The notes under the pieces were generated by a model. It ran no database searches, was not told the DNA's origin, and worked only from the letters and a program-made list of their open reading frames with translations. A stretch of DNA of 44,959 nt from Nitrospinae bacterium RIFCSPHIGHO2_02_FULL_39_82 (lineage in GTDB: Bacteria > Nitrospinota > Nitrospinia > UBA9942): positions 1 to 44,959 of the forward strand of contig MHDI01000085.1 of assembly GCA_001804915.1 (NCBI GenBank). Reading direction: 5' to 3'. Shown in pieces: positions 1 through 16,612 of this stretch (position 1 is the first letter of the stretch; each line of letters starts with the position of its first letter). Made by a program: the position numbers and the translations under genes.

Positions 1-64
1 CAGCCGTAAAGAGGATTACTATGAATTTATTTTTTACTGAAAGTTCAATTATTTTTTCAAGCAT
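1..64 (-). CDS. cusA: CusA/CzcA-family RND heavy-metal efflux pump, N-terminal 21 codons only (runs off window edge)
   Basis: Minus-strand ATG at 64..62 reads MLEKIIELSVKNKFIVILFTA. This matches the I-I-x-x-S-V-x-N-x-F-x-V N-terminus typical of CusA-type pumps. It sits directly downstream of the cusB-like gene. Confidence 0.6.
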   Translation of the reverse strand, partial: MLEKIIELSVKNKFIVILFTA

Positions 65-71
65 AGAAATA

Positions 72-152
72 AAAAGTTCATAAAGTTCGTAAAGTTATAA
101 AGTCCAATAACTTTTTCCTTTATAAACTTTAGGAACTTTCTACTTTAAAACT
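72..152. repeat. Intercistronic inverted array of short-period (8-9 nt, AAAGTTnn) repeats forming an imperfect long hairpin
   Basis: Left arm is aaagttcat aaagttcgt aaagttat aaagtcc. Right arm is built from aacttt/actttn units. It lies between the cusB stop (153) and the cusA start (64). Confidence 0.6.
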
Positions 153-1595
153 TTAGTGTTTATGTTCCATTGCCGGCATTTCATGTCCCTCATGTTTTGG
201 TGCTGTCATTTGATGTTCTTGATGTTCTGGTGCCTTGGTGCTCTGGTGCTCTGGTGTCCTGGTGCTCTGTCCTCTCATCTTCTCCACAGCCTCTCCGAGT
301 TTGCTTTCCGAATCAATGAGGAATTGGGCAGATGTTACGACATCTTCCCCCGCCTTCACACCTTCCAATATCTGCAGATAACCATCTCCGGTATCAACAC
401 CCACCTTTACATCCCTCGGTTCAAATACCCCTTCACCTTTTGAGACGATTATTATATCCCTCACACCTGAGCGTATCACCGCCTCTGCCGGGACAAGTAT
501 GGCACTCTCTGCTATCTTTGATTCAAGCTTTACATTTGCATACATATCAGGCTTTAATTCCCAGTCGGGGTTATCAAACTCCATACGAACTTTTACAGTC
601 CTTGTCTCAGCCTGAAGATAGGGATAAATATATGTAACAACCCCCCTGTATACCTTGCCGGGGAAATAGGACAGAGTTATCTCTGCCGTCTGGCCTACTT
701 TTACCCACGGCACTTCATATTCGTATATATCTGCATATACCCATATTTTTGATATATCTGCAATAACATAGAGATGGGTATCAGGTGTGATAAACATACC
801 CTGAAGCAGATTTTTCTGAACTACAATTCCATGAACCGGGGAATGTATATGGAGTGTCTTTTTTGGTTTTTTCGTTTCCTCAAGCTCCTTTATTTGATGT
901 TCAGCAACATCAAAGAGCTGAAGCCTCTTCCTTGCGGATTCAAGCAGAGACTCGGCACCGCTTGTAACACCTTCCACTTTGCTATCCTTCAGTGATTTTG
1001 CATATTCAATCGCCAGTAGATACTCCTGTTGTGCCGATACAAGTTCGGGACTATAAACCTCTAACAGCACATCTTCTTTGTTAACTTCCTTGCCTGTGAA
1101 ATCAATATATAGTTTCTCAACCCATCCCTGTATCTTTGTGTGTATATGTGTAACCTTTCTCTCATCATAGTCAATTCTGCCAACAGTCCTTATGGTTCTG
1201 CGAAGAGGTTTCATTATACCCTTACCTGTCCTCACACCAATACTCTGAACTGTTGTTGGATCAATCTTTACAGTCCCCGGTATAACACCATCTTCATCCT
1301 CATATACAGGTACCATATCCATACCCATAGGGGATTTACCTGGTTTATCAGATTTAAAACCAGGCATCATCGGGTCTGTCCAGTAAAGTATCTTTCTCTC
1401 TTTCCCCCGATTACTAACTTCGGGGGCAGGCTTCCCTTCTATCTCTTGGGGTGTTGTAACTTCATGTTCTTTATGTTCACCCTTGATATATGGGATTATA
1501 TCTTCACGATAAAAGAACCCAATACCTATGACTACAGCCAATATTATGAATCCCGAAAACTTTATTAATTCTTTCATCTTACTGCGTTCAGACAT
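153..1595 (-). CDS. cusB: CusB-type periplasmic adaptor (membrane fusion protein) of a Cu(I)/Ag(I) RND efflux pump, with an unusual His/Met-rich C-terminal tail
   Basis: The segment LYWTDPMMPGFKSDKPGKSPMGMDMVPVY closely parallels the E. coli CusB segment YWYDPMYPNTRFDKPGKSPFMDMDLVPKY. It has an N-terminal TM/signal and HlyD-type barrel-sandwich/beta-barrel architecture. A GGAGG RBS lies upstream. Confidence 0.9.
   Translation of the reverse strand: MSERSKMKELIKFSGFIILAVVIGIGFFYREDIIPYIKGEHKEHEVTTPQEIEGKPAPEVSNRGKERKILYWTDPMMPGFKSDKPGKSPMGMDMVPVYEDEDGVIPGTVKIDPTTVQSIGVRTGKGIMKPLRRTIRTVGRIDYDERKVTHIHTKIQGWVEKLYIDFTGKEVNKEDVLLEVYSPELVSAQQEYLLAIEYAKSLKDSKVEGVTSGAESLLESARKRLQLFDVAEHQIKELEETKKPKKTLHIHSPVHGIVVQKNLLQGMFITPDTHLYVIADISKIWVYADIYEYEVPWVKVGQTAEITLSYFPGKVYRGVVTYIYPYLQAETRTVKVRMEFDNPDWELKPDMYANVKLESKIAESAILVPAEAVIRSGVRDIIIVSKGEGVFEPRDVKVGVDTGDGYLQILEGVKAGEDVVTSAQFLIDSESKLGEAVEKMRGQSTRTPEHQSTKAPEHQEHQMTAPKHEGHEMPAMEHKH
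211..267. repeat. About 7 tandem copies of an 8-nt unit (tggtgctc and variants) inside the 3' end of cusB
   Basis: Read directly as tgatgttct tgatgttc tggtgcct tggtgctc tggtgctc tggtgtcc tggtgctc. Three units equal 24 nt, giving the peptide repeat STRTPEHQ/STKAPEHQ. Confidence 0.8.
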
Positions 1596-1611
1596 TTAAA
1601 CCTCCCAACTA

Positions 1612-1686
1612 AGCAACGAGTAACGAGCAATGAGCAATGAGTTTTTTTAGTCGTTACTCATTGCTCAGCACTCATTGCTCATTACT
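1612..1686. repeat. Inverted arrays of a heptanucleotide repeat (CAATGAG / CTCATTG) forming an approximately 30-bp imperfect hairpin
   Basis: Left arm agcaacgag taacgag caatgag caatgag, loop tttttttag, right arm tcgtta ctcattg ctcagca ctcattg ctcatta. It lies between the TolC-like stop (1689) and the cusB start (1595). No T-run follows it on the transcribed strand. Confidence 0.75.
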
Positions 1687-1688
1687 TA

Positions 1689-2972
1689 TTAAAATAGCCT
1701 CTTCCCCACTACTGCCTCAAGTTCTGCTAATTTCTTTTCATAGTCCGTGAGAACCTTCTCGTATTGAATCTGATAATTAAAGAGCGTAATCTGGTTATCA
1801 AGGAGTGTAAGAAAATCAATCTTATTCACCTGATACCCTGCCAAAGCAGAGCTTAGAGACTGAGTTGCCTGTGGTATTATCCCGGTTGAAAACAGCTCTA
1901 TCAATTTTCTCCCCTTCTCTTCCTCTGCCATAATCTCCTTTATCTTTAGAAAAATATCATTTTTCGCTGCATTGTATCGCTGCATTGCTGCACTTATATT
2001 ATAAGATTCTTCAACCACCTTCTTATCCTGCTTTGTCTTATACCAGAGGGGAACATTCAAAGAGAATTTCCCTGATACAGAATTCATATTATTCTTTTCC
2101 TGCCCCAGACTTAAACCCACATCAAAATTAGGATAATATTCAAGCTTCGCAAGATTGTAAGCAGCCCTATATCTCTCTATCATCTTTTCCAGCCCTTTAA
2201 GAAGGGGACGATTCTCGACAGATGTAGATTGTAATTCTTCAATAGTAAATCTAAATTCACTTTTCTTTATATCTCCTGGCTTTCCTATCGGCGACTGAGG
2301 GAGGCGGTTCATAAGTATATTAAGCCTTGCCTCTGCTGACTGCCTCTCCCTTTCAAACCTTATAAGCTCATCAATGATTTTAGAAAGCTCTACCTGTGCC
2401 TTGAGCACATCCTGCTGAAGCCCCATGCCTACAGAATATTTGGCCTCTGCAATCTTAACAAAATCCCGTAATGATAGCTTATTTCTCTCGGTTATCTCTA
2501 TTGCCTTATATACAAAATAGAGGTCATAGAATGCATCCTTGACCATCTGTATAAGTTTTACCTCCATATCCCTATATTCATCTTCTGCTGCCTCTGCCTC
2601 TTTTTGTGCCAGCTCTATTTTTAAGGAAAGCTTTCCTGGATAAGGAAGGCTCTGCATTACTGTAATCTCCTTCATTGGCTCATTCGCCGACAGGGTATTC
2701 ATTGGAACCCTTAATAAACCTATTTCAAGCTTGGGGTCATCCAGTGTCCCCATCTGGCTCGGAATCTCCTTAAATGCATTTGCTCTTGATATTGCAGCAA
2801 AGAGGTCAGGGTTATTCTTAAGTGCCTCATTGATAAGCTGCTGGAGGTCTAAGGTCTGAACATTCTCAGCAAAAGCAACGGCAGTAAGCAGTAAGCAATG
2901 AGCAATGAGTAATGAGCAATGAGCAATTTTACTGCCTACTGCATACTGCCTACTGCATACTTTATCTTGCAT
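1689..2972 (-). CDS. TolC-family outer membrane efflux factor (CusC-like position in the operon)
   Basis: Length 427 aa with a two-repeat coiled-coil/beta-barrel OEP pattern (LQQLINEALKNNPDL..., LKAQVELS..., NQITLFNYQIQYEK). It has a signal peptide ending AFA|E and sits immediately upstream of cusB. Confidence 0.85.
   Translation of the reverse strand: MQDKVCSRQYAVGSKIAHCSLLIAHCLLLTAVAFAENVQTLDLQQLINEALKNNPDLFAAISRANAFKEIPSQMGTLDDPKLEIGLLRVPMNTLSANEPMKEITVMQSLPYPGKLSLKIELAQKEAEAAEDEYRDMEVKLIQMVKDAFYDLYFVYKAIEITERNKLSLRDFVKIAEAKYSVGMGLQQDVLKAQVELSKIIDELIRFERERQSAEARLNILMNRLPQSPIGKPGDIKKSEFRFTIEELQSTSVENRPLLKGLEKMIERYRAAYNLAKLEYYPNFDVGLSLGQEKNNMNSVSGKFSLNVPLWYKTKQDKKVVEESYNISAAMQRYNAAKNDIFLKIKEIMAEEEKGRKLIELFSTGIIPQATQSLSSALAGYQVNKIDFLTLLDNQITLFNYQIQYEKVLTDYEKKLAELEAVVGKRLF
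2881..2960. repeat. Two adjacent heptanucleotide arrays (GCAGTAA/GCAATGA x7, then CTGCMTA x4) lying inside the 5' end of the TolC-like CDS
   Basis: Read directly. The same CAATGAG unit occurs at 1612..1686 and 15079..15130. Here it is translated as IAHCSLL-IAHCLLL, the hydrophobic core of the signal peptide. Confidence 0.75.
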
Positions 2973-2983
2973 TCTTCATCTCC

Positions 2984-3586
2984 TTAAAATGGATAACTTA
3001 ACAAAACAGATAGCCTCATACCTGCACCCATAATTGGTATATTAGAATTTGATATTTCTATGTCGGTTATATGATTGCCAAGGCTCACAGATGGGGTTGC
3101 CAACCATTTACTATCTTTAAATGAAAATGTATACCCTGCTTCTGCATGAGGAAAGACAAGATAGCTCCTCTTTTCCTCACCCATATATTTTGCATAGATG
3201 CCCATGAGATCAATACCTCCACCGAGCCATCCACCCTCAGGTGCTGTATAAGTAATGTATCTCCTGTAACTAAAACCACTACCATAGGCATCCCATTTCC
3301 AGCTTTCTGTATTAGAATGCCAGAAGACACCTCTTAATGCCCATGCACTCTTTTCATTTATATTCTGTTGATACTCCAATCTTGCCATTCCAAACACTGC
3401 ACCAAGCAAATCAATATTTATAAGCCTGTCTTTAGACAGGCTCGTAATATCATTCTCTGCAAAAGCTGATTGTCCTGCCATTGAAGCAAAACATACAAAT
3501 ACCATTATAAGTAAACGGTAAAAACCTTTTTCTGAACGACTTTTTAAAATTTCTAAGGTTTTTACCGGTTTATCAAATTTATTCAT
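2984..3586 (-). CDS. Small putative outer-membrane beta-barrel protein, unknown function
   Basis: Signal peptide (…SAFA|E), alternating hydrophobic/aromatic strands and a C-terminal LSYPF aromatic terminus typical of OMPs. Its start overlaps the tlpA-like stop by 4 nt. Confidence 0.45.
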   Translation of the reverse strand: MNKFDKPVKTLEILKSRSEKGFYRLLIMVFVCFASMAGQSAFAENDITSLSKDRLINIDLLGAVFGMARLEYQQNINEKSAWALRGVFWHSNTESWKWDAYGSGFSYRRYITYTAPEGGWLGGGIDLMGIYAKYMGEEKRSYLVFPHAEAGYTFSFKDSKWLATPSVSLGNHITDIEISNSNIPIMGAGMRLSVLLSYPF

Positions 3587-4089
3587 TTTTCACCCACCAT
3601 TTTTTCAAAGTAGTTAATACTTTCCTTACTATCCCATTCCCTCGCTCCTACTGCCCTATTTATCAGGAATCCTTTCGGGTCTATTAGATATGTTGATGGG
3701 ATACCCATTACACCGTATGCGGCAGCAACTTCACTATCCTTATCTAATAGGATAGTAAATGTAAGTTTATTTTCTGCTACAAATCTCTTAACAAGTTTAT
3801 GACCGCCCTTATCTATGGAGACTGCCAGCATTGCAAAATTTTTTTTTGATTTAAGCTTTTGATAGAGTATCTCCATAGACGGCATCTCATCTATACATGG
3901 ACCACACCATGTTGCCCAGAAGTTTAAAAAAATATATTTACCTTTTAAATTCTTCAAATTAACCTTATTGCCCTCCAATGTCATAAGGGTAAAATCAGGG
4001 GCAGGTATTTTTTCTTCAGCATGTAAATCTCTTATTCCTATTGCAATAAGGAACAGTACATAAATCAATACAATATTTTTAGACTTCAT
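3583..4089 (-). CDS. TlpA/ResA-family periplasmic thiol:disulfide oxidoreductase (thioredoxin fold)
   Basis: Signal/anchor helix followed by FLNFWATWCGPC (WCGPC active site). The AhpC/TSA-type context GIPSTYLIDPKG is present. Confidence 0.85.
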   Translation of the reverse strand: MKSKNIVLIYVLFLIAIGIRDLHAEEKIPAPDFTLMTLEGNKVNLKNLKGKYIFLNFWATWCGPCIDEMPSMEILYQKLKSKKNFAMLAVSIDKGGHKLVKRFVAENKLTFTILLDKDSEVAAAYGVMGIPSTYLIDPKGFLINRAVGAREWDSKESINYFEKMVGEK

Positions 4090-4092
4090 CTT

Positions 4093-4623
4093 TTATTTCC
4101 TACCTTTCCCATTTTTTTTATTAACTTTTTCTGATGCTGTTTTAGCTTCCTCTAATTTTTCTTTTAAAACTTTTAACAAGTCATTTTTTTTAATTATATT
4201 TTTCTGTATATATGCCTGTGTATATTTTATTGTGCCTATATCTATTAAGATACCAGAAACAATTTCCTTTTCTTTCTCCAGATTTTGCTCAACAAACTCT
4301 ATATCAACCTTTAATTCACCACCAAAATCTTTTTTTATGTTATCCAGCAATCTTTTTTTCTCTGACAAATCTCTGTTCAGCAAATCCCTTGTCATCCTTA
4401 AAGCTATTTGGTTCTGTCCCCATGATACAATATCCTTGTCTCTGCTTATCTCCTTTTCAAGAAATGAAATCTCTTCCTCAATGGTGGAGATTTTATTTTC
4501 GATATCTTCTAAAGATTTCTCATTCCACTTCTGTGGAGAGGATTGAGGTGATGGTTCTGAATACAAAATATCTGAGTTAAAACCTATGGAGATAAGGATT
4601 GAAATTAATATTATTTTTTTCAT
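4093..4623 (-). CDS. Secreted coiled-coil protein, unknown function
   Basis: N-terminal signal sequence, then heptad-rich E/K/I/L sequence and a Lys-rich C-terminus. It lies 3 nt upstream of the tlpA-like start. Confidence 0.45.
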   Translation of the reverse strand: MKKIILISILISIGFNSDILYSEPSPQSSPQKWNEKSLEDIENKISTIEEEISFLEKEISRDKDIVSWGQNQIALRMTRDLLNRDLSEKKRLLDNIKKDFGGELKVDIEFVEQNLEKEKEIVSGILIDIGTIKYTQAYIQKNIIKKNDLLKVLKEKLEEAKTASEKVNKKNGKGRK

Positions 4624-4640
4624 ATGTTCTTACCCTCCTG

Positions 4641-5657
4641 TCATTCCATTATATGGGCAGTGGATGTTATTGCTCCATTAAATATAAGTCCAATAAATAT
4701 CAAGATTGATATAATTAAAATCACCATAGAAATCTTCCTTTTGAATGGATTCCGCTCCTCACCTCTGTTAATAAATGGTATCAAAAATAGGAAGAGAGAG
4801 ATAATGGCTGGAGCGATTATAAGAAAAGGCATCCAGATATTCTCAAGGGAATAGAGCCAGAGGAACATCCAGGGAGGCTTGGTAACCTCAATCCCTGCTA
4901 CTGCTTCAGAGCCAAGAGGAGGCTCTATCGTAAGAGAGAGAAGAAGGATGAGCAGCAATACTCCCATCCCATATAAACCAAGTCTTTTCAGATGCTCAAC
5001 AAATAAAATCTTCGCACCTTCTCCTTCCCTTTGCCGCGGGAGTGAAGATAAGCCATGAATTTTTATAAGAAAGAAATGTAATAGCATTAAAAATACAAGT
5101 ATCAACGGTAAAAGTGAAATGTGAAGCGCATATAATCTCCCAAGCATGGAAACACTTTTGGTTAGCCCTTCACCAAGCCATATCCCTATTGCTCCTAATT
5201 TATCTACAATCCAAAGATGATGTTCCAATGCCTCTACTGCCTCCTGATCCCATTTCAATACAGTCCCTGTAAATATCAACCCAAAATAGACCAGTAATAG
5301 CAATACCCCGACAGTCCAATTAAATTCTCTTGGCTTTTTATATGAGGCGGTAACAAAAACTCTAATCATATGTAAAATAACACTAACCGTCACTACCTGA
5401 ACCGCCCAAAAGTGAATACCCCTTACAAACCAGCCGAGTAACAGAGTCTCAGCTATATAATGAACACTCCTGTTGGCTTGCTCTGGGGTAGGATTATAAA
5501 ATTGCGAAAGGATTATGCCACTCGCAAAAAGAATAATAATGCTGACCAGAGTAATCCCACCCAGAGAGTAAAAGATACTATTTGAATGGGCTGGAACCTC
5601 ATAATAAAGGGCTCCAATTCCAACTCTTTCCCTGAAGTCTTTAAGAATTTTTCTCAT
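4641..5657 (-). CDS. Cytochrome b6-type cytochrome b fused to a subunit-IV-like C-terminal domain (quinol-oxidising membrane subunit)
   Basis: VPAHSNSIFYSLGGITL, GWFVRGIHFWA..ILHMIRVF (H-x13-H), KKPREFNWTVGV, LKWDQ and LYALHIS..LLHFFLIKIHG (H-x14-H) parallel cytochrome b6. The C-terminal part aligns to subunit IV, but the PEWY position reads PPWM. Confidence 0.85.
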   Translation of the reverse strand: MRKILKDFRERVGIGALYYEVPAHSNSIFYSLGGITLVSIIILFASGIILSQFYNPTPEQANRSVHYIAETLLLGWFVRGIHFWAVQVVTVSVILHMIRVFVTASYKKPREFNWTVGVLLLLVYFGLIFTGTVLKWDQEAVEALEHHLWIVDKLGAIGIWLGEGLTKSVSMLGRLYALHISLLPLILVFLMLLHFFLIKIHGLSSLPRQREGEGAKILFVEHLKRLGLYGMGVLLLILLLSLTIEPPLGSEAVAGIEVTKPPWMFLWLYSLENIWMPFLIIAPAIISLFLFLIPFINRGEERNPFKRKISMVILIISILIFIGLIFNGAITSTAHIME

Positions 5658-6013
5658 ATACGGATTATTGTAATAAAAAAGATGGTAGCTACAACTCCTG
5701 TGAAGAAGGCCGCATACCAGAACCCTTTTTTATCAGTAGATACACTCCTGTAGAAACCAACATCCGGTTCTATATGTTTTACCTCTGTTTCAATATCTGG
5801 TTCTGTTTTTACTTCCCCATGCCCCACATGCCCTTCTTCCCGAAATGTCTTATCTGATTCCGTTGTTACAGGAGCTTTAATGACTTCTTCCTTTCTGGTA
5901 TCTGAATGCTTTTTATTGCTATGGGCATAGAGAGGGCTATTTATTAACAGAACAAGTCCAGCTAAAAATAGAATAAATATTCCTATCCATTTGTGCCTAA
6001 AAAATAACCTCAT
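5654..6013 (-). CDS. Bitopic/two-TM membrane protein with His/Glu-rich periplasmic loop, unknown function
   Basis: N-terminal and C-terminal hydrophobic helices and no Cys residues. An ATGA overlap with the cytochrome b start implies translational coupling. Confidence 0.45.
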   Translation of the reverse strand: MRLFFRHKWIGIFILFLAGLVLLINSPLYAHSNKKHSDTRKEEVIKAPVTTESDKTFREEGHVGHGEVKTEPDIETEVKHIEPDVGFYRSVSTDKKGFWYAAFFTGVVATIFFITIIRI

Positions 6014-6129
6014 ATCAACTCCTAATGACCCCTTAATTTATTATATATTTTAACGGATTCCTTTTAAATTCCTCCATACAAGTTTCTGAGCAAAAGAAAT
6101 ACACCTTTCCCTGATAAACCTTTTGAAAG

Positions 6130-6621
6130 CTAATATTGTTTCTGCTTCATCATATCCATTCCACCACCAGAGCCGCCATGCATACCTCCACTTCCCATCT
6201 CATGACCGCCTCTTGAAGTCCCATGTTCCGTTCCACCCATGTGTCCACCTCTGGTGCTGGGGTCATGTCCCATTGTTCCGCGACCCATCATACCACCCTC
6301 CATCATCTGCTTATGCATATCCGATAACTGCTGACGCATCTGCTTCATCTGCCCATGTATCCGGTTCATTCTCTCATGTATCTTTGCCATATCTTCATTA
6401 CTCATGCCAGCATGAGAATCCTCCATCATTTTATCCATGTTCTTCATTTCATCCTGCATCTCTACCATCATCTTACCCATGTCTTCTAATTTTTCAGACA
6501 TCTGATGAGGCATGATATTTGCGCTGGTTTTACTCTCTTCCTTTTTCTGGGCTGATGAAAAGCCATAAGAACCTGCTACAAAAATAACAGCAAAGAGAAA
6601 AATCAGTATATTCTTTTTCAT
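6130..6621 (-). CDS. Met/His/Gly-rich periplasmic protein, putative soft-metal (Cu/Ag) binding
   Basis: Signal peptide followed by dense M-x-x-M, H-x-x-M and GGHM motifs, for example MHKQMMEGGMMGRGTMGHD...GGHMGGTEHG...GGMHGGSGGGMDMM. Composition resembles PcoE/SilE and the ZraP Gly-His tail. Its stop abuts the upstream gene. Confidence 0.6.
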   Translation of the reverse strand: MKKNILIFLFAVIFVAGSYGFSSAQKKEESKTSANIMPHQMSEKLEDMGKMMVEMQDEMKNMDKMMEDSHAGMSNEDMAKIHERMNRIHGQMKQMRQQLSDMHKQMMEGGMMGRGTMGHDPSTRGGHMGGTEHGTSRGGHEMGSGGMHGGSGGGMDMMKQKQY

Positions 6622-7308
6622 TTATGACTCACCTCCTTTCTCATCTTGCTTATAACTTTCATAAAAAGTGATGCCGTAAAGATATTTTCCAATCTCATTA
6701 ACTTTATTGAATCCGACTTCCAAAATAAGTTCAGGAATTCTTCCCTCTACCCCATCTTCTATAGGCTCAAACAGGCTAAATAACCTGGATAAGATACGGT
6801 CAACAATGTAAGGACGGGGGGGACCGAAATCTATAAGCAGCATTCTACCCCCTGGTTTTAACACACGCAGGCACTCTTTTAAAGATGCAAGTCTATTATC
6901 CTTCTGAAGATGGTGAAAAACCAAGGAGGACAAAACAACATTAAAAGAGCTATTTTCAAAGTGCATATTATTCATTGCTCCCCTGTGCAATGGAATATTG
7001 AAATTATTCTTTTGAGTTTTTTTGTAGGCAATTTGTAATGCCTTCTCATCAGGGTCGAGTCCTTCTGCAACCACTGATGGATATATTTCCTTTAACATGA
7101 TAAGCAAAGTTCCAGTCCCGCAACCTGCATCTAAAATTCTTTCTGTTCCAGAAAGGTTTAAATGTTTAATAATTCTATGTCTGAATCCTTTACCAAACCC
7201 CAATAATATACACCCTATATCATAAAAGGGTGTCAGGAAGTTCCAGTGTGCAGGTGGGATATAATTTTCAGTTTTTTCCATTAGAACTATTTCCATCAAA
7301 TCCTCCAT
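6622..7308 (-). CDS. Class I SAM-dependent methyltransferase, UbiE/MenG-like
   Basis: ILDAGCGTGTL (motif I), VLKPGGRMLLIDF (post-II) and an N-terminal FYD...G..HR segment like UbiE. The start may be one of several in-frame Met codons (7308, 7296, 7281). Confidence 0.8.
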   Translation of the reverse strand: MEDLMEIVLMEKTENYIPPAHWNFLTPFYDIGCILLGFGKGFRHRIIKHLNLSGTERILDAGCGTGTLLIMLKEIYPSVVAEGLDPDEKALQIAYKKTQKNNFNIPLHRGAMNNMHFENSSFNVVLSSLVFHHLQKDNRLASLKECLRVLKPGGRMLLIDFGPPRPYIVDRILSRLFSLFEPIEDGVEGRIPELILEVGFNKVNEIGKYLYGITFYESYKQDEKGGES

Positions 7309-8204
7309 GAATCAAAGATATATTTAAATCTTAAAAATATATAATTTTTCTTAAAATCCTGATTTACATCATTGGAATCATTAAACAGATAACTATATTG
7401 ACAGAAAATTTTTGCTGATTTATCAATCTCATAGCTTAGCTCACTATATATCCTGGTATAACTATCCTTTCTCAGACTTGAATCCACCCACCAGTTATCA
7501 AAATTTAATAGCTGATATTGATAAATAAAATTCAATCCTGCTTTTTTAGAAAAATGATGCCATACACCAATGGATATATTCTGGCTGGTATAATCGTAAG
7601 AATCATTGTTAGATGAGTTTTTCTTATATGAATATCCTCCACCTATAGTTGTCCTCTCGCTTATCCCATGCAGCATAAACATGGATACCTCTGTCAGTTT
7701 ATCTTTTTGTTTATCACCGCCTGTCTGAATAGTTCTGTCAGGGAAATCTATATCTGAAAAGCCATAGGAATGTATCATCATAGTTTTGCCCATTAAGTAT
7801 TTTATAGATGGTAAAACTGCTGTTCTTCTATAGTTGTAAAGGGAGACTACTGAGTCATTGAATATCTCACCCTCACCTGATAATTCTATAGAAAGCCTAT
7901 CTGTAAAATAATGCTCATAGGCAGCATATCCGAAATTGTCAGTAAAATTTCCATTCATTCCCATAAAAAATCGCTGAAAGGTATAAGAGTAAGCCCCTGA
8001 GATAATATCCTGCTCTGATAGATTTGCATCAAAATCTATCCCCGGTCTGATTAAAAAGAGTCCATCCCTTGATACATCCTTTGATAGAAAATCAATGTTA
8101 TCATCGTTTCCCACACCTTCTGTTAGAGAAGGAGTAAGATTTACTGCATAAACAGAACTATTTAATGTTACTAAAATAAAGGCTATAGATATAACTTTTC
8201 GCAT
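7296..8204 (-). CDS. Putative outer-membrane beta-barrel protein, unknown function
   Basis: Signal peptide, then many Y/F-rich amphipathic strands. The C-terminal region (...NDSNDVNQDFKKNYIFLRFKYIF) is reminiscent of SN-x-x-x-(Y/F)-x-(K/R)N...F barrel termini (DUF560/Slam-like), from memory only. Confidence 0.45.
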   Translation of the reverse strand: MRKVISIAFILVTLNSSVYAVNLTPSLTEGVGNDDNIDFLSKDVSRDGLFLIRPGIDFDANLSEQDIISGAYSYTFQRFFMGMNGNFTDNFGYAAYEHYFTDRLSIELSGEGEIFNDSVVSLYNYRRTAVLPSIKYLMGKTMMIHSYGFSDIDFPDRTIQTGGDKQKDKLTEVSMFMLHGISERTTIGGGYSYKKNSSNNDSYDYTSQNISIGVWHHFSKKAGLNFIYQYQLLNFDNWWVDSSLRKDSYTRIYSELSYEIDKSAKIFCQYSYLFNDSNDVNQDFKKNYIFLRFKYIFDSWRI

Positions 8205-9022
8205 TATTCATCAGGCTGTGAAGATGCTATTTTTATTATCTCTTTCTCATCTACATCTCCTACAACTATGCAAAATACTCCGTCCTTTTTCCAGTGTGCA
8301 AAATTAAGATTATTTAATTTGCCTAATTGTATCATCTTCTTTTTTGTAATTTCCTCTTTAGCCTGAAAATATGAAAGTATCCTCTTTCCATCACCCATAA
8401 CCATATGGGCAACAGTAACACCTTTTATATTGCATACATCTCCTTTTATAAATTTGAACCCTTCAGGAAAATAGGTCGGGATAAATGCCTTAACACCCAT
8501 AGAATTTTCTATCTTCTGACTTAATTCATGTTCTGTCTTGCATAAATAATCCATGTGGCCTTCGCTCATGCATCTCTGATGTTCAAGAATATATAGTTTT
8601 AGGGGGGAAGATGTGGTATCCGATGTAGCAATGAAAATAAATAATAATAATGAGGCAGCGAGTGCCATACCTCTGTAAATAATACCGCTACCTCTATTCA
8701 TAATACTAATTTTATTTGATATTATAGCCCTTTCCTGTTTCCATGTTTTTGATATGAGAGGATATATTCTTTGACTCTTTTCAGAATAATTCTCTGCACC
8801 CAAGATAAAAACTTTATTTAAAATATTTTTTTGGGTCTCGCGGGATGCTGTTTTTGGCAACATAGATTTTAGGGATTGCCGGATAGCCTGGAGCATTTTA
8901 TATTCTCTTTCACAGAAATTGCACGAACTGATGTGCCTCTTTACCTCATCCGATTCTAAAGGGGTTAGTTCATTATCAATATATCCAGACAGCTTATCTC
9001 TTAATTCCTCACATACATTCAT
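8204..9022 (-). CDS. zf-HC2 (ZAS-type) membrane anti-sigma-factor-like protein with periplasmic C-terminal domain
   Basis: N-terminus reads CEELRDKLSGYIDNELTPLESDEVKRHISSCNFCEREY (H-x3-C-x2-C zinc motif). It has a single TM (GMALAASLLLFIFIA) and a roughly 140-aa periplasmic domain containing HQRCMSEGHMDYLC. Confidence 0.7.
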   Translation of the reverse strand: MNVCEELRDKLSGYIDNELTPLESDEVKRHISSCNFCEREYKMLQAIRQSLKSMLPKTASRETQKNILNKVFILGAENYSEKSQRIYPLISKTWKQERAIISNKISIMNRGSGIIYRGMALAASLLLFIFIATSDTTSSPLKLYILEHQRCMSEGHMDYLCKTEHELSQKIENSMGVKAFIPTYFPEGFKFIKGDVCNIKGVTVAHMVMGDGKRILSYFQAKEEITKKKMIQLGKLNNLNFAHWKKDGVFCIVVGDVDEKEIIKIASSQPDE

Positions 9023-9217
9023 ATTAAACCTCTAATCCTATTAAAATGTTTTATATTTAAAACAATCTATATCCCCAGAAGGTTCCCAAAATTTTAAGAA
9101 ATTTAGTTGAAGTGATATCTCCGGGTGGAAGAGGAGTTATAGACTGATATGTTTTCCTATGTCAGGATTTGGGATAGAGGACAAGGGCGTTAATGTATGG
9201 TATATTTATTTCAGGGT

Positions 9218-10531
9218 TTATCTTTCATTGACAATATCATCATCTGACATCTCACTTCTTTTTCTTTCTTCCTCTATTATCCTCTGCTCCAGAGCATCCA
9301 TCATCTTTTTTTCTTCAACCGAAAGTCTCTTCTTCATATCAATGATAAGTTCCTTTTCCGCATTCTCCATCTTTTTCTGAAAAGACATTAATCTTCTGGA
9401 CTTCTCGTTTTTTATTTCCTCATCAATATCCTTAAATTTATTTGTTTTCTCCTCTCCAATTTTTCTGAGCAGGTCTTCCCTTGCTACTTGCTCCTCTTCC
9501 ATCAGCTTCTTTTTTAACTTTTCCAGTTCCTTTGATTCTACAGTTTTAATTTTATCCTCCATTTCGGAAAGTTTTAGTTCTGGTAATTCAAATGCTTCAT
9601 ACTGTCTGTCCCGCCTTTCTTCTAATAAATCCATCAACTTTGAAGCAATATTGTGAATAAGTATAGAAGTTTTACTTTCCGGGGATGTCATTATAAAAGG
9701 TTTCATATCTTCCAGAGAATTTCTTACATCATTATTATCAGAGATATATCCAAGATATTCCAGTTTAAGATTAAGATTTTTTCTTACCATGGTTACAATA
9801 TCATTCCCAATATTTATATCTTCTGTATCTTTAACCATATTCAAGATAAGATGTGGTTGAAAATCTTTGATTATTGTATCTAATGTAGTATGAGCTGTTT
9901 TATCAATTTGCCCTAAACTATCCCTTATGTCTTCCATTGTCCTAATCTGTCCACTATTCCGGGGTTCCTTTGCAATATTTAACAAATTCACTATTTCATC
10001 ATTATCAGAGAAGGTATTTTCAAGTTTTTTAAAAATGATGTTTTTAAGATAAGTGTAGGTATTGGTAACAGAGGTAACCTCCGGGGTGCTGATGATTATG
10101 CTGCAGTCCGCAATGGTAAAAAAATCAATTGTATTAAAATTCATAGAAGGGCCTAAATCCAGTATCACATAATCAGAGTTTAACATCTGGATATTTTTAA
10201 TGAAATTATTCTTAAATGCGAAGGACATGCTGGTTGTTGCCGGGAGCCCTCCAGCATTGCTGATTAGTTTAAGACATTCAATGTCAGTATCTGTTGTGAT
10301 TTCCGTGAGGGCATTTTTCTTTCGTGATGCAAAATCATTTAGATTCAAGGAGGGCGACCTGATTCCAAATATAGCATGTTGATTTGGTATTTCAAAGCTG
10401 GCATCAATAAGAATAACCTTTCGTTTTGAAAGGGCTAAAGAAATGGCTAAATTTGCACCGATAATGCTCTTTCCAACACCACCCTTTCCGCTGCTTATTA
10501 CAATTATGTTCTTTTTTTTATCTTGAGACAT
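9218..10531 (-). CDS. FlhG/MinD/ParA-family P-loop ATPase with a roughly 140-aa charged coiled-coil C-terminal extension
   Basis: Deviant Walker A ISSGKGGVGKS, Walker B YVILDLGP and TPEVTSVTNTYTYLK (compare EPTSxTDAYalIK of FlhG). The C-terminus is E/K/R-rich heptads (…KELEKLKKKLMEEEQVAREDLLRKIGEEK…). Confidence 0.8.
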   Translation of the reverse strand: MSQDKKKNIIVISSGKGGVGKSIIGANLAISLALSKRKVILIDASFEIPNQHAIFGIRSPSLNLNDFASRKKNALTEITTDTDIECLKLISNAGGLPATTSMSFAFKNNFIKNIQMLNSDYVILDLGPSMNFNTIDFFTIADCSIIISTPEVTSVTNTYTYLKNIIFKKLENTFSDNDEIVNLLNIAKEPRNSGQIRTMEDIRDSLGQIDKTAHTTLDTIIKDFQPHLILNMVKDTEDINIGNDIVTMVRKNLNLKLEYLGYISDNNDVRNSLEDMKPFIMTSPESKTSILIHNIASKLMDLLEERRDRQYEAFELPELKLSEMEDKIKTVESKELEKLKKKLMEEEQVAREDLLRKIGEEKTNKFKDIDEEIKNEKSRRLMSFQKKMENAEKELIIDMKKRLSVEEKKMMDALEQRIIEEERKRSEMSDDDIVNER

Positions 10532-10555
10532 ATTGTTTTTAAGATTGTATCAAAT

Positions 10556-11221
10556 TCAAAAAGGAATTTTTTTTACTACGGCTAAACTTACAGCCTCTGC
10601 TACTTCTTCAAAAGTTACTGGTGTTGCCCTCATTGCCTCTACGGCAACTGTAGCCTGCCCGGAGGCTTCCCATACAATGTTTCCTGTAAGGGTATCCCAT
10701 AATTGAAGCGAGAGTTTAACTGTAGTTTCTCTTGTTGAAATAATGGACAAGCCGAGGGCTGAGAGTCTTATAGTGGTTGTTTCTACAAAGGATAGTAATC
10801 TCGGTTGGGCTATATACTGAACCTCAAGCGCATCCCCTATTTTTTTAAGGTAGTTTTTATTGAGTATTCCGGTAACATCATAATAATTTAACATAGAGGC
10901 ATAGATGTCTGTCAGGGCAGCATTATTGATGCTGTTTATTGTCTCTCTTGACGATATAATTACTATCTCTGGTTTTTCTTTTCTGAATGCCTTTTCTATT
11001 ATATCTGATACCCCTACCCTATATTCAGAAAGACCTCTCTCTCTTGAAACTGCAGTCGTAAGAAACCCGATACGGGAGTTACCTATATCTTTCAAAAGCG
11101 GAGAACGATAAAATTCATTTGCAGTTATGTTGGCTTGTTTAAACGGACCGCTACAACCTCCGGCAGAGGTTAGAAATAAAATAAGAGAGTAAATAAGTGC
11201 ATTTATTCTAATTTTTTCCAT
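10556..11221 (-). CDS. Putative lipoprotein, unknown function
   Basis: Lipobox LTSAGG|C after a signal helix, with a mixed alpha/beta mature domain. It overlaps the upstream DUF3343 gene by 19 nt. Confidence 0.5.
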   Translation of the reverse strand: MEKIRINALIYSLILFLTSAGGCSGPFKQANITANEFYRSPLLKDIGNSRIGFLTTAVSRERGLSEYRVGVSDIIEKAFRKEKPEIVIISSRETINSINNAALTDIYASMLNYYDVTGILNKNYLKKIGDALEVQYIAQPRLLSFVETTTIRLSALGLSIISTRETTVKLSLQLWDTLTGNIVWEASGQATVAVEAMRATPVTFEEVAEAVSLAVVKKIPF

Positions 11222-11454
11222 ATACCATTTTCATCAAAAGAAAATATACCTGATAGTTTTAAATTATTATCCTTACATATTCCTCTTACCTTTTCTCTGT
11301 CATTGCTGTCGAATTCCAATGCCATACTGCATTCAGAGGTAATAGAACGCGGCTTAATAATTGTTCTGAAATTTATGTCTCCTTTTATTAAAAATTTCTC
11401 TGCCCTGAGGGTTTCATGTGTGCTTATGAATAACGCTATATCCCTTTCCATCAT
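11203..11454 (-). CDS. DUF3343-family small protein (putative Se/S carrier-like)
   Basis: The sequence ALFISTHETLRAEKFLIKGDINFRTIIKPRSITSECSMALEFD follows the DUF3343 pattern, including its conserved Cys (x-S-x-C-G/S-x-A-L-x-F). Confidence 0.7.
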   Translation of the reverse strand: MMERDIALFISTHETLRAEKFLIKGDINFRTIIKPRSITSECSMALEFDSNDREKVRGICKDNNLKLSGIFSFDENGIWKKLE

Positions 11455-11574
11455 GGGAAGAATTTATCGTATTTTCTAAACTCAAGTTGTAATTTTTATT
11501 TATAATATGTTATTCTATTCAAGGCTAACGAATTAAAACTCTTTGGCCCTTAACTCTTTAAACTTAAACTTTCA

Positions 11575-11650
11575 GGGGCAGTAGCTCAGCTGGGAGAGCG
11601 CTTCGTTCGCAACGAAGAGGTCGGCGGTTCAATCCCGCTCTGCTCCACCA
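11575..11650 (+). tRNA. tRNA-Ala (anticodon CGC), CCA encoded
   Basis: Manual cloverleaf: GGGGCAG/TA/GCTC-AGCTGGGA-GAGC/G/CTTCG-TTCGCAA-CGAAG/AGGTC/GGCGG-TTCAATC-CCGCT/CTGCTCC/ACCA. The G3:U70 alanine identity pair is present. Confidence 0.93.
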
Positions 11651-15078: not shown

Positions 15079-15130
15079 AATGAGTGACAAGCAATGAGTT
15101 TTATTTACTCATTACTCGTTGCTCATTGCT
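15079..15130. repeat. Inverted CAATGAG/CTCATTG heptamer-type hairpin (about 20 bp, 16/20 paired)
   Basis: aatgagtgacaagcaatgag - ttttattta - ctcattactcgttgctcattgct. It lies between the stop of the Zn-ribbon gene (15134) and the pycB-like start. It is followed on the minus strand by T-rich ttgtttaataatttt. Confidence 0.7.
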
Positions 15131-15937: not shown

Positions 15938-16612
15938 TCAATTAGTAAATATAAGAAAATATTGATATGGCAAAAAATAATAATCAGCCTCCAATTTAAA
16001 ACCTGCCTTTAAAATCTCCCCCATTATTTTATCCTTTGAAATTCTAATATTAAGAGGGGGACCAACCGGCGTATCTACAACATGAAAATCCACAATAGCC
16101 AGTCTTCCATTTTTTTTCAAAACCTTTTTCAGTATTTTAAGATAATTGTCCCTCCCTTCAATATGATGATAGGTATCACATATAAAAATCAGGTCAATAG
16201 AGGATTCTAACAGGAGAGGGTCATCTGACTTTGATAGTATCGTCTTTATATTATTGAGCCTCTCCTTCTTTGCCCTTTTTTCTATATATTCTATCATCTC
16301 ATTTTCAATATCAACTGCATAAATCCTTCCACTATCCCCTACCCTTTTTGATAATAGGACAGAGAAATATCCAGACCCTGCACCTATATCAGCTATAACA
16401 TCACCATCCCTTATTGCAAGATAGTCAACAACCTTTTTCGGCTTTTGCCACTCAGCCCTGTCAGGGCTTTCCATCCTCTGGATATATTCATTTATAGATT
16501 TAAAAGGGTGGTGTTTATGATGTATTTCTTCTGCGTCAACACCGCTTAAAATAGGCGAAAGGCTGGTGATGAGTAAAAGTAATCTGAAAAATTTTATAAA
16601 ATGTATAAACAT
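15938..16612 (-). CDS. Class I SAM-dependent methyltransferase with N-terminal signal/anchor sequence
   Basis: VIADIGAGSGYFS (motif I), LKKNGRLAIVDF and an N-terminal hydrophobic helix. Confidence 0.8.
   Translation of the reverse strand: MFIHFIKFFRLLLLITSLSPILSGVDAEEIHHKHHPFKSINEYIQRMESPDRAEWQKPKKVVDYLAIRDGDVIADIGAGSGYFSVLLSKRVGDSGRIYAVDIENEMIEYIEKRAKKERLNNIKTILSKSDDPLLLESSIDLIFICDTYHHIEGRDNYLKILKKVLKKNGRLAIVDFHVVDTPVGPPLNIRISKDKIMGEILKAGFKLEADYYFLPYQYFLIFTN

Follow-up and report, generated by a model that had tools for sequence, protein, structure and literature searches.

The 44,959-nucleotide stretch of the Nitrospinae bacterium RIFCSPHIGHO2_02_FULL_39_82 genome analysed here (contig MHDI01000085.1, hereafter the window) begins with twelve minus-strand genes (9022..1), of which eleven are complete open reading frames (ORFs) and the twelfth, cusA, is represented by its first 21 codons. 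This region can be read as a single operon by which a groundwater lineage of Nitrospinota meets copper/silver stress in its envelope and in which a conserved core, consisting of a membrane sensor, a TlpA-like thioredoxin, a small beta-barrel and a CusCBA pump, has been supplemented with lineage-specific genes, including a cytochrome b cassette; we estimate the probability of this reading, with the mechanism proposed below, as slightly better than even (about 0.55). The arrangement is a new combination of known kinds of systems (a Cus pump, control by an extracytoplasmic function (ECF) sigma factor and its anti-sigma factor, and a Scs-like thioredoxin), and the cassette is its more novel element.

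The reference set consisted of 16 related Nitrospinota cus-type loci (designated by L-numbers), gathered by means of the small barrel and the periplasmic domain of the sensor. The window itself is contained in L001, a contig of a Rifle groundwater metagenome-assembled genome (MAG) that also carries the full cusA gene (1042 aa), followed by hisS (MHDL01000110.1). The sensor, TlpA, the small barrel and CusCBA are common to 15 of these loci, the barrel being missing only from L105, and the minimal form sensor-TlpA-barrel-CusC-CusB-CusA occurs with nothing else in L096, L098, L101, L103 and L104, the last of which occupies the same chromosomal site as the window. The full gene order of the cluster, with the neighbouring genes, is reproduced in L093, which belongs to a second species and whose cytochrome b and TlpA are 82 and 96% identical to those of the window, and rearranged versions of this order are found in L033 and L050. 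Since the order recurs in L093, the cluster described in the earlier note on this DNA stands, and its arrangement is not due to chance.

CusCBA pump

Judging from their sequences, the proteins encoded at the downstream end of the cluster, that is, the CusC-like TolC-family outer-membrane factor (2972-1689, here and below on the minus strand unless indicated otherwise), CusB (1595-153) and CusA (64-1, of which the 21 codons MLEKIIELSVKNKFIVILFTA are present before the gene leaves the window), constitute a genuine Cu(I)/Ag(I) pump. The full-length CusA of L001 scored 1233 bits with TIGR00914, the CusA/CzcA model (cut-off 701), and aligned end to end with CusA of E. coli at 1298 bits, versus 549 bits with ZneA; in the alignment to 3k07/3t51 it keeps M573, M623 and M672, with LLYMP, MMVET and VDMLSTG conserved, as well as the Cu/Ag-type motif AIGAMVDAAIIMIEN of transmembrane (TM) helix 4. 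CusB contains HlyD_D23 (284 bits) and HMBD domains and the putative N-terminal Met ligands DPMMPG...SPMGMDMVP; its best NCBIfam match is the CusB model, at 225 bits, under the cut-off of 390 set for that model. The outer-membrane factor matches the Pfam family OEP (145 bits, two repeats) and is 76-100% identical across the related loci. The claim of the earlier note that the pump is a true CusCBA system is thus borne out by the CusA scores, the Met triad and the TM4 motif, and the putative Met ligands of CusB agree with it.

CusB also bears a His-rich C-terminal tail (PEHQ...HEGHEMPAMEHKH), encoded by tandem repeats with periods of 8, 16 and 30 nt (177-269 in the window). This tail is absent from E. 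coli CusB and is likely to be an extra metal-binding extension.

Cus copper efflux is usually described as CusCFBA under the control of CusRS. No CusF-like gene was found in the window or in the 16 related loci, and no genes of CusRS, CueR/MerR or CopA are present within the window; the absence of CusF, CusRS, CueR/MerR and DsbD/CcdA genes, reported earlier for the cluster, holds across the entire window.

The genes downstream of cusA differ among strains (hisS in L001, a Wzy_C gene in L003 and L005). Behind CusA, a protein with an FGE-sulfatase domain and an HtrA-type protease are encoded in L094 (10146-11970), L095 (12536-13994) and L105 (10481-11900). Because formylglycine-generating enzymes are copper-dependent, these genes may represent a further envelope or copper link.

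TlpA-like thioredoxin and small barrel

The TlpA/ResA-like thioredoxin (4089-3583) has a WCGPC active site and a cleavable signal peptide and is predicted to be soluble in the periplasm. It matches AhpC-TSA (108 bits) and the ResA and TlpA models (123 and 94 bits, both under the equivalog cut-offs), its membership in this fold family is clear, and its relatives in PDB include 3kcm, ResA and TlpA. The tie between this thioredoxin and the pump, noticed earlier in the window, extends to all related loci: wherever the contig of a cus-type locus extends far enough, the gene immediately precedes those of the barrel and the pump or, in L105, which has no barrel, that of the outer-membrane factor. The stop of the TlpA gene overlaps the start of the small-barrel gene (3586-2984) by 4 nt in the window and often does so in the relatives. 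DsbA/C-like proteins (ScsC) are encoded in none of the annotated loci.

The small barrel (200 aa) was modelled by AlphaFold2 with 8 strands, at a predicted local distance difference test (pLDDT) score of 68, and its best Foldseek matches are NspA, the N-domain of OprF, OmpA and OmpW. Its family comprises 21 protein clusters, all organism-named members of which belong to Nitrospinae/Nitrospinota, and is small, since a scan of JGI metagenomes with this protein yielded 6 further loci only.

Promoter and sensor

The sensor gene (9022-8204) is preceded by the putative ECF-type promoter motif GGAACCTTCTGGGGATATAGATTGTT (9061..9086), located 38 nt upstream of the ATG. The aligned upstream regions of the sensor genes share GGAAC(C/T)TT(C/T)T-N11-TTGTT, and GGAAC-N16-TTGTT (equal to GGAAC-N18-GTT) has its sole exact match in the window at this position. 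One copy is present upstream of the sensor gene in all 10 loci where the region is available (the window, L033, L093, L095, L096, L098, L101, L103, L104 and L105), at about 25-40 nt from the ATG in most of them and at 262 nt in L095. Extra copies immediately precede the small-subunit/cytochrome b-TlpA genes of L050 and the coiled-coil/TlpA genes of L094, and approximately 86 unrelated fetched loci contained 2 matches only. The motif possesses the AAC (-35) and GTT (-10) signature of ECF promoters and is one base off the sigmaR consensus GGAAT...GTTG (PMC5005934).

A sigma-54 promoter (TGGCAC-N5-TTGCW), suggested by sigma-54 activators near the relatives, was rejected, as its matches occurred at chance level and none of them fell into the operon leader. 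A histidine kinase and a sigma-54-dependent response regulator adjoin the cus cluster in L102 (8162-10646), L103 (9491-11967) and L033 (1-1051).

The sensor protein matches Pfam zf-HC2 (35.5 bits, above the cut-off) and DUF4367, with RsrA as the top NCBIfam match, and consists of a cytoplasmic ZAS zinc finger, one TM helix and a periplasmic domain similar to the C-terminal domain of RseB/MucB (Foldseek E 2e-5). The ZAS motif is complete, H30, C34 and C37 being invariant and C4 conserved in 90% or more of the sequences. In the periplasmic part, which is far better conserved than the cytoplasmic one, H148, C151, H156, C161, H165, H206 and C251 are invariant and C197 is kept at 90% or more. The family of this periplasmic domain includes 17 protein clusters, and all its organism-named members are again Nitrospinae/Nitrospinota. 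We infer that the sensor is a ZAS anti-sigma-like protein acting in an ECF-type control of the operon, with the sigma factor encoded elsewhere. The designation of this sensor as an unconnected orphan has to be given up in view of the conserved ECF-type promoter in front of it; it is an orphan by position only.

Variable genes

All variable inserts fall between the sensor and TlpA; these are one or two methyltransferases, a Met/His-rich protein, YHS/TRASH proteins (PF04945), a coiled-coil protein, a 302-aa barrel and the cytochrome b pair. The 302-aa outer-membrane beta-barrel candidate (8204-7296) gives weak matches to BBP2_2 and to a PEP-CTERM-associated outer-membrane protein family; it is present in L093 and L094 and as a fragment in L033, and its gene is split by a frameshift in L002, a strain of the same species (L002 7593-8362 versus 7296-8204 in the window). 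This barrel is dispensable. The secreted coiled-coil protein (176 aa, 4623-4093) is a frequent accessory encoded mostly just upstream of TlpA, with homologues of 58-66% identity in L033, L050, L093, L094, L095 and L102.

The class I S-adenosylmethionine-dependent methyltransferase (7308-6622), a cytoplasmic protein, matches Methyltransf_25 (81 bits) and passes only the broad Pfam model Ubie_methyltran (PF01209, 44.8 bits), remaining under every NCBIfam cut-off (64 bits versus 158 for TIGR01934; 80 bits versus 180 for CpaM, the best match). The copies in L093 and L094 are merely 40% identical, and L095 has two copies. A second UbiE-like class I methyltransferase of 224 aa (Ubie_methyltran 49.7 bits) is encoded in the window at 15938-16612, which indicates that such enzymes are not specific to the copper cluster.

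The Met/His-rich protein (163 aa, 6621-6130) is predicted to be secreted; of its 139 mature residues, 27 are Met and 10 are His. It is encoded in five of the loci only (the window/L001, L033, L093 and L094); it has no match in Pfam or NCBIfam, and a PDB sequence search returned coiled-coil noise only.

Two functional assignments made for these genes in the earlier note do not survive the comparison. The enzyme regarded as a quinone-type methyltransferase fails all MenG/UbiE cut-offs and is variable or duplicated among the loci, and the Met-rich protein, supposed to replace CusF, is carried by few loci and resembles in composition a SilE/PcoE-type sponge rather than CusF. The general copper theme fits the YHS/TRASH metal-domain genes and the Met/His-rich protein found in the relatives. 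Profile searches in Pfam and NCBIfam also confirmed the domain assignments proposed for zf-HC2, the class I methyltransferase, Cytochrome_B, AhpC-TSA/Redoxin, OEP and the CusB barrel-sandwich domain with HMBD; the proteins of 119, 163, 176 and 200 aa matched no family.

The 116-nt gap behind the Met/His-rich gene (6014-6129) is, by its sequence, a deletion scar. Over 97 nt, which comprise the final 11 nt of the Met/His-rich gene and continue into the gap, the sequence agrees at 98% identity with the 3' end of a 267-aa HD_5+YHS gene which L093 keeps intact, and the remnant, which reads KVYFFCSETCMEEFKRNPLKYIIN*, corresponds to the last ~24 codons of this HD (HD-GYP-like) and YHS gene. This match rules out a designed spacer, be it regulatory or an internal promoter.

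Such variability raises the question of whether the cluster is a mosaic of passengers, in which only the sensor, TlpA, the barrel and CusCBA form a functional unit and the inserts, having landed in a permissive spot, play unrelated roles (the cytochrome b, for instance, in respiration). The set of inserts indeed differs by locus, one of them has decayed to the 116-nt relic, the 302-aa barrel is frameshifted in a strain, relatives of the cytochrome b occur in unrelated contexts, and a similar UbiE-like methyltransferase is found elsewhere in the window. However, every insert is located behind the promoter/sensor and ahead of TlpA, in tight or translational coupling, two different cytochrome b subfamilies have been recruited to the same place beside TlpA, several inserts possess metal-binding features (YHS/TRASH, Met/His richness), and the ECF motif is duplicated ahead of the inserted cassette in L050. 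We therefore consider the passenger explanation unlikely and prefer to regard the inserts as additions to one copper/silver-stress operon.

Cytochrome b cassette

The cassette consists of a 119-aa small subunit (6013-5654) and a cytochrome b of 338 aa of the unsplit b6/subunit IV type (5657-4641), the stop of the former gene overlapping the start of the latter by 4 nt. The cytochrome b matches Pfam Cytochrome_B with 100 bits; its haem ligands H82/H96/H179/H194 are invariant, with x13 and x14 spacing, as is H146 in the cd loop, and 118 of 120 family members have KPPW instead of PEWY. Variant Qo motifs occur in other lineages as well. A C-terminal H-x-M is present in 81/83 loci (119/120 proteins), and, judging from the topology of b6f, a 7-TM arrangement would put this tail in the periplasm. 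The small subunit, described previously as a two-TM protein, has more likely a cleavable signal peptide, followed by a His motif at the predicted mature N-terminus (A|HSNKKH), an acidic linker and one C-terminal TM anchor. An equivalent small gene precedes the cytochrome b in 81 loci, likewise coding for a signal peptide and an acidic linker; H-x(1-5)-H directly follows the signal peptide in 63 of the 81 proteins, and a KG[YF] motif followed by a TM helix was found in 73. Neither subunit contains a conserved cysteine, which excludes direct thiol exchange with TlpA; a putative metal or haem site made up of the His motif and the H-x-M tail would be an attractive mediator.

Within the cus-type loci with enough upstream sequence, the cassette is present in 4 of 12 and absent from 8. 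The cus-linked cytochromes b fall into two subfamilies, one comprising the window and L093 and the other L033 and L050; the latter are 54% identical to the cytochrome b of the window and 68-73% identical to a multihaem-linked group, and the flanking genes in L033 and L050 are 58-88% identical to those of the window. The position of the cassette varies too, as it stands before the coiled-coil gene in the window and after it in L033. Two MAGs place the cytochrome b on another contig beside a 26-haem cytochrome c (L010/L095; L012/L104-type). Because most of these loci have no cassette, the cytochrome b is not an obligatory donor for the Cus-linked TlpA, and the fixed partnership of the two suggested by the window is not upheld.

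The cytochrome b family is Nitrospinota-wide and occurs independently of cus. Of 82 species-level loci, 76 have the order TlpA, small subunit, cytochrome b, and a TlpA paralogue adjoins the pair in about 75 Nitrospinota species without cus genes. Nitrospinota are the main marine nitrite oxidisers. In ~70 mostly marine Nitrospinaceae species the module comprises a CYCXC/PCYCGC protein, a membrane-anchored TlpA paralogue (WC[GAS]TC), the small subunit, the cytochrome b and a glutaredoxin-like protein. This five-gene module, with its CYCXC/PCYCGC (seleno)protein family, is exemplified by L007 (8398-11276) and found in ~70 others among L011-L088, with neither cus nor Rieske genes. In a groundwater subgroup a cytochrome c with 26 CXXCH precedes the small subunit and the cytochrome b (L008 7707-10999; L010 7125-10452; L012 7636-11002), and a further group has small ORFs as its only neighbours. 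No gene of a Rieske protein or cytochrome c1/f was found in the window or in ~80 related loci, the multihaem group having the 26-haem cytochrome c and no Rieske protein. The family corresponds to the "second, unsplit copy" of cytochrome b that was noted in Nitrospina gracilis without a function (PMC3578206); in the literature, "PCYCGC" returned one incidental mention with no function, and "orphan cytochrome b" nothing relevant.

As judged by these neighbourhoods, the cassette is probably a Rieske-less, quinone-pool-linked membrane module serving different periplasmic partners, either the 26-haem cytochrome c or TlpA paralogues. The repeated adjacency of TlpA and this mobile cytochrome b cassette argues for a real functional coupling, since it is phylum-wide, involves two independent recruitments and is accompanied by the ECF motif before the cassette in L050. 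We may tentatively, and with considerable doubt, go further and propose that the pair represents a new Nitrospinota-wide class of Rieske-less quinone-pool oxidoreductase, in which a His/Met-ligated metal (probably copper) or haem centre, formed by the processed small-subunit N-terminus and the C-terminal H-x-M of the cytochrome b, would join the quinone pool to periplasmic thiol/copper chemistry (TlpA paralogues, CYCXC/PCYCGC proteins, the Cus pump). If this is true, the pump of this operon would have a built-in conditioner of copper/thiol redox state, driven by respiration, and the whole would be switched on by a ZAS anti-sigma factor that senses thiols or metal; a module linking the quinone pool to periplasmic thiol/copper redox would be a new way to power reductive envelope chemistry without DsbD.

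Quite improbable, in our opinion, is the narrower view that the cassette is a periplasmic copper redox enzyme, either a quinol:Cu(II) reductase making Cu(I) for CusCBA or a Cu(I):quinone oxidase, with a His/Met metal site (processed small-subunit N-terminus and H-x-M) replacing the Rieske cluster. The periplasm-facing H-x-M with its frequency given above, the invariance of H146, a His motif behind the signal peptide in about 76 of 81 small subunits, the absence of adjoining Rieske or cytochrome c1 genes and the double recruitment of the unit into a Cu(I) pump operon agree with this view, and there is a precedent in the PepSY_TM family, whose membrane haem-b proteins act as periplasmic metal reductases (PMC13038864). 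However, some small subunits have Gln or Asp instead of His1, most family members adjoin no copper gene, ligation of a third haem or a docking function would explain the same residues equally well, and the metal site is a putative one.

The least probable is the integrated twelve-gene copper machine of the earlier note, in which the Rieske-less cytochrome b, fed by menaquinol, would be the dedicated donor for TlpA and copper centres, with a methyltransferase tailoring the quinone and the Met-rich protein in place of CusF: the cytochrome b gene does lie no more than 0.6 kb away from that of TlpA in the window and just ahead of it in L033/L050, the two are neighbours in the approximately 75 species mentioned above, DsbD/CcdA genes were seen in no locus and the ECF motif directly precedes the small-subunit/cytochrome b-TlpA genes in L050, but TlpA does without the cytochrome b in 8 of the 12 evaluable loci, two MAGs keep the latter with a 26-haem cytochrome c elsewhere, a mediator would be needed given the lack of conserved Cys in both subunits, neither the methyltransferase nor the Met-rich protein fits its assigned role (the former fails the MenG/UbiE cut-offs, the latter is absent from most loci), and electron transfer from menaquinol to a thioredoxin-type CXXC is energetically uphill, by roughly 150-200 mV.

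Operon organization

The dense packing of twelve same-strand genes, interrupted by a 116-nt gap and two repeat hairpins, was recognized in the earlier note and is borne out by the ORF coordinates and by folding. The junctions are overlaps of 1, 13, 4 and 4 nt and gaps of 0, 17, 3 and 11 nt, and three gaps are longer, namely the 116-nt scar, 93 nt between cusC and cusB (1596-1688) and 88 nt between cusB and cusA (65-152). The 93-nt gap contains inverted heptamer repeats (AGCAATG)n, forming a hairpin of -40.2 kcal/mol (z -7.5) from tandem 7-nt repeats, followed by the Shine-Dalgarno sequence of cusB; the hairpin in the 88-nt gap is built of tandem 9-nt repeats (-27.4 kcal/mol, z -5.4), and a third repeat hairpin sits within the 5' end of the TolC-like ORF. 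These hairpins are not of any known RNA family, as an Rfam scan of 1-11600 gave no match. A generic scan for sigma-70 promoters and terminators was uninformative, its counts being equal to those of shuffled sequence.

Arrays of the heptamer AGCAATG/CATTGCT, forming long hairpins, are dispersed in the window (1610-1690, 2885-2961, 15108-15129). The array inside the TolC-like ORF codes for the signal-peptide core IAHCSLLIAHCLLL and is also present in L033; repeat-encoded "CLLLTA" peptides of a like kind occur in genes of L008 and L012.

The three same-strand genes upstream of the sensor gene (9218-11454), whose products are a protein of 83 aa similar to Se/S carriers, a lipoprotein-like protein of 221 aa and an ATPase of the ParA/MinD type bearing a long charged tail, are shared with L093 only. 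The 195 nt between this trio and the sensor gene include the ECF-type promoter, and the trio probably does not belong to the operon. The rest of the window is occupied by housekeeping genes.

Proposed mechanism

In the copper/silver-stress operon as we envisage it, periplasmic Cu(I)/Ag(I), or thiol oxidation driven by copper, would change the Cys/His domain of the sensor, whereupon an ECF sigma factor encoded elsewhere would be set free and transcribe the operon from GGAAC-N16-TTGTT. CusCBA would export the metal, and TlpA would act in a Scs-like manner, keeping the cysteines of the envelope reduced, perhaps also those of the sensor, which would thereby be reset; alternatively, TlpA could take over the part of the missing CusF by binding Cu(I) and passing it to CusB. 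The version found in the window would have gained the genes between the sensor and TlpA, that is, the second barrel, the methyltransferase, the Met/His-rich metal sponge, the now-deleted HD/YHS signalling gene, the coiled-coil protein and the cassette. The role of the cassette would most likely be to connect the quinone pool with the redox chemistry of TlpA and copper, as an optional aid and not as an essential donor. Under this interpretation the core would join metal export to envelope thiol repair in one unit, which suggests a CusF-independent route, and the whole clade would run its Cus pump from an ECF-type promoter.

Several points weigh against this interpretation. Every organism involved is an uncultured MAG, and the evidence is all comparative. 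The cognate ECF sigma gene is absent from the window and from every fetched locus, and sigma-70 family genes are missing from the window as well as, in L098, L095, L103 and L104, from the region upstream of the sensor. The model of the Cys/His segment of the sensor is of low confidence (pLDDT <50 at residues 70-158), and only the match of the C-terminal domain was used. No DsbD/CcdA/ScsB electron donor for TlpA is encoded near any annotated locus. Finally, the hairpins between cusC, cusB and cusA, together with the chance-level sigma-70-like matches, leave room for transcript processing or extra internal promoters.

Comparison with known systems

The operon resembles CusCFBA/CusRS of E. coli in the end-to-end homology of CusA with its Met triad, in the putative Met ligands of CusB and in the OEP-family outer-membrane factor. 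It differs in being devoid of CusF and CusRS, in the order C-B-A placed behind a sensor, a thioredoxin and an outer-membrane barrel, in the control, which is apparently exerted via an ECF-type promoter, and in the His-rich C-terminal tail of CusB.

As to regulation, the nearest parallel is provided by CnrYXH-CnrCBAT of Cupriavidus metallidurans, where an RND (resistance-nodulation-division) metal pump is under ECF/anti-sigma control (PMC6851896). In both cases a membrane anti-sigma factor with a periplasmic sensing part adjoins and presumably controls a heavy-metal RND pump via an ECF-type promoter. However, the sensor and the anti-sigma factor of the window are a single ZAS/zf-HC2 polypeptide with an RseB-C-like domain instead of CnrX and a short CnrY, the sigma gene lies outside the locus, the metal is Cu/Ag instead of Ni/Co, and the proteins are unrelated.

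The Scs thiol oxidoreductases (ScsABCD), which are induced by Cu and protect the envelope (PMC10907172; bioRxiv 10.64898/2026.05.22.727170), likewise include a copper-linked periplasmic TlpA-type protein of thioredoxin fold, ScsD being TlpA-like, and ScsC is known to bind Cu(I) tightly (PMC8900818). In contrast to Scs, the locus of the window possesses neither a ScsB/DsbD-like donor nor ScsC or ScsA, and its thioredoxin, a soluble protein, is coupled in translation with an outer-membrane barrel and with an RND pump. The Met/His-rich protein resembles SilE/PcoE in composition only, being secreted, ~140 residues long in its mature form, very rich in Met and His and probably disordered or helical; it occurs in only a part of the related loci, and its homology to SilE/PcoE is not detectable.

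The cytochrome b of the cassette shares with the Rieske/cytochrome b complexes (bc1/b6f) the four haem His of b6-type spacing, with the b6 and subunit IV parts unsplit. It departs from them in the lack of Rieske and cytochrome c1/f proteins, in KPPW for PEWY, in the family-specific small subunit with its N-terminal His motif, in the C-terminal H-x-M and in the partners, which are mostly proteins of thioredoxin fold. The cassette subgroup that is paired with a 26-haem cytochrome c is similar in this respect to the Cbc quinol:multihaem modules of Geobacter.

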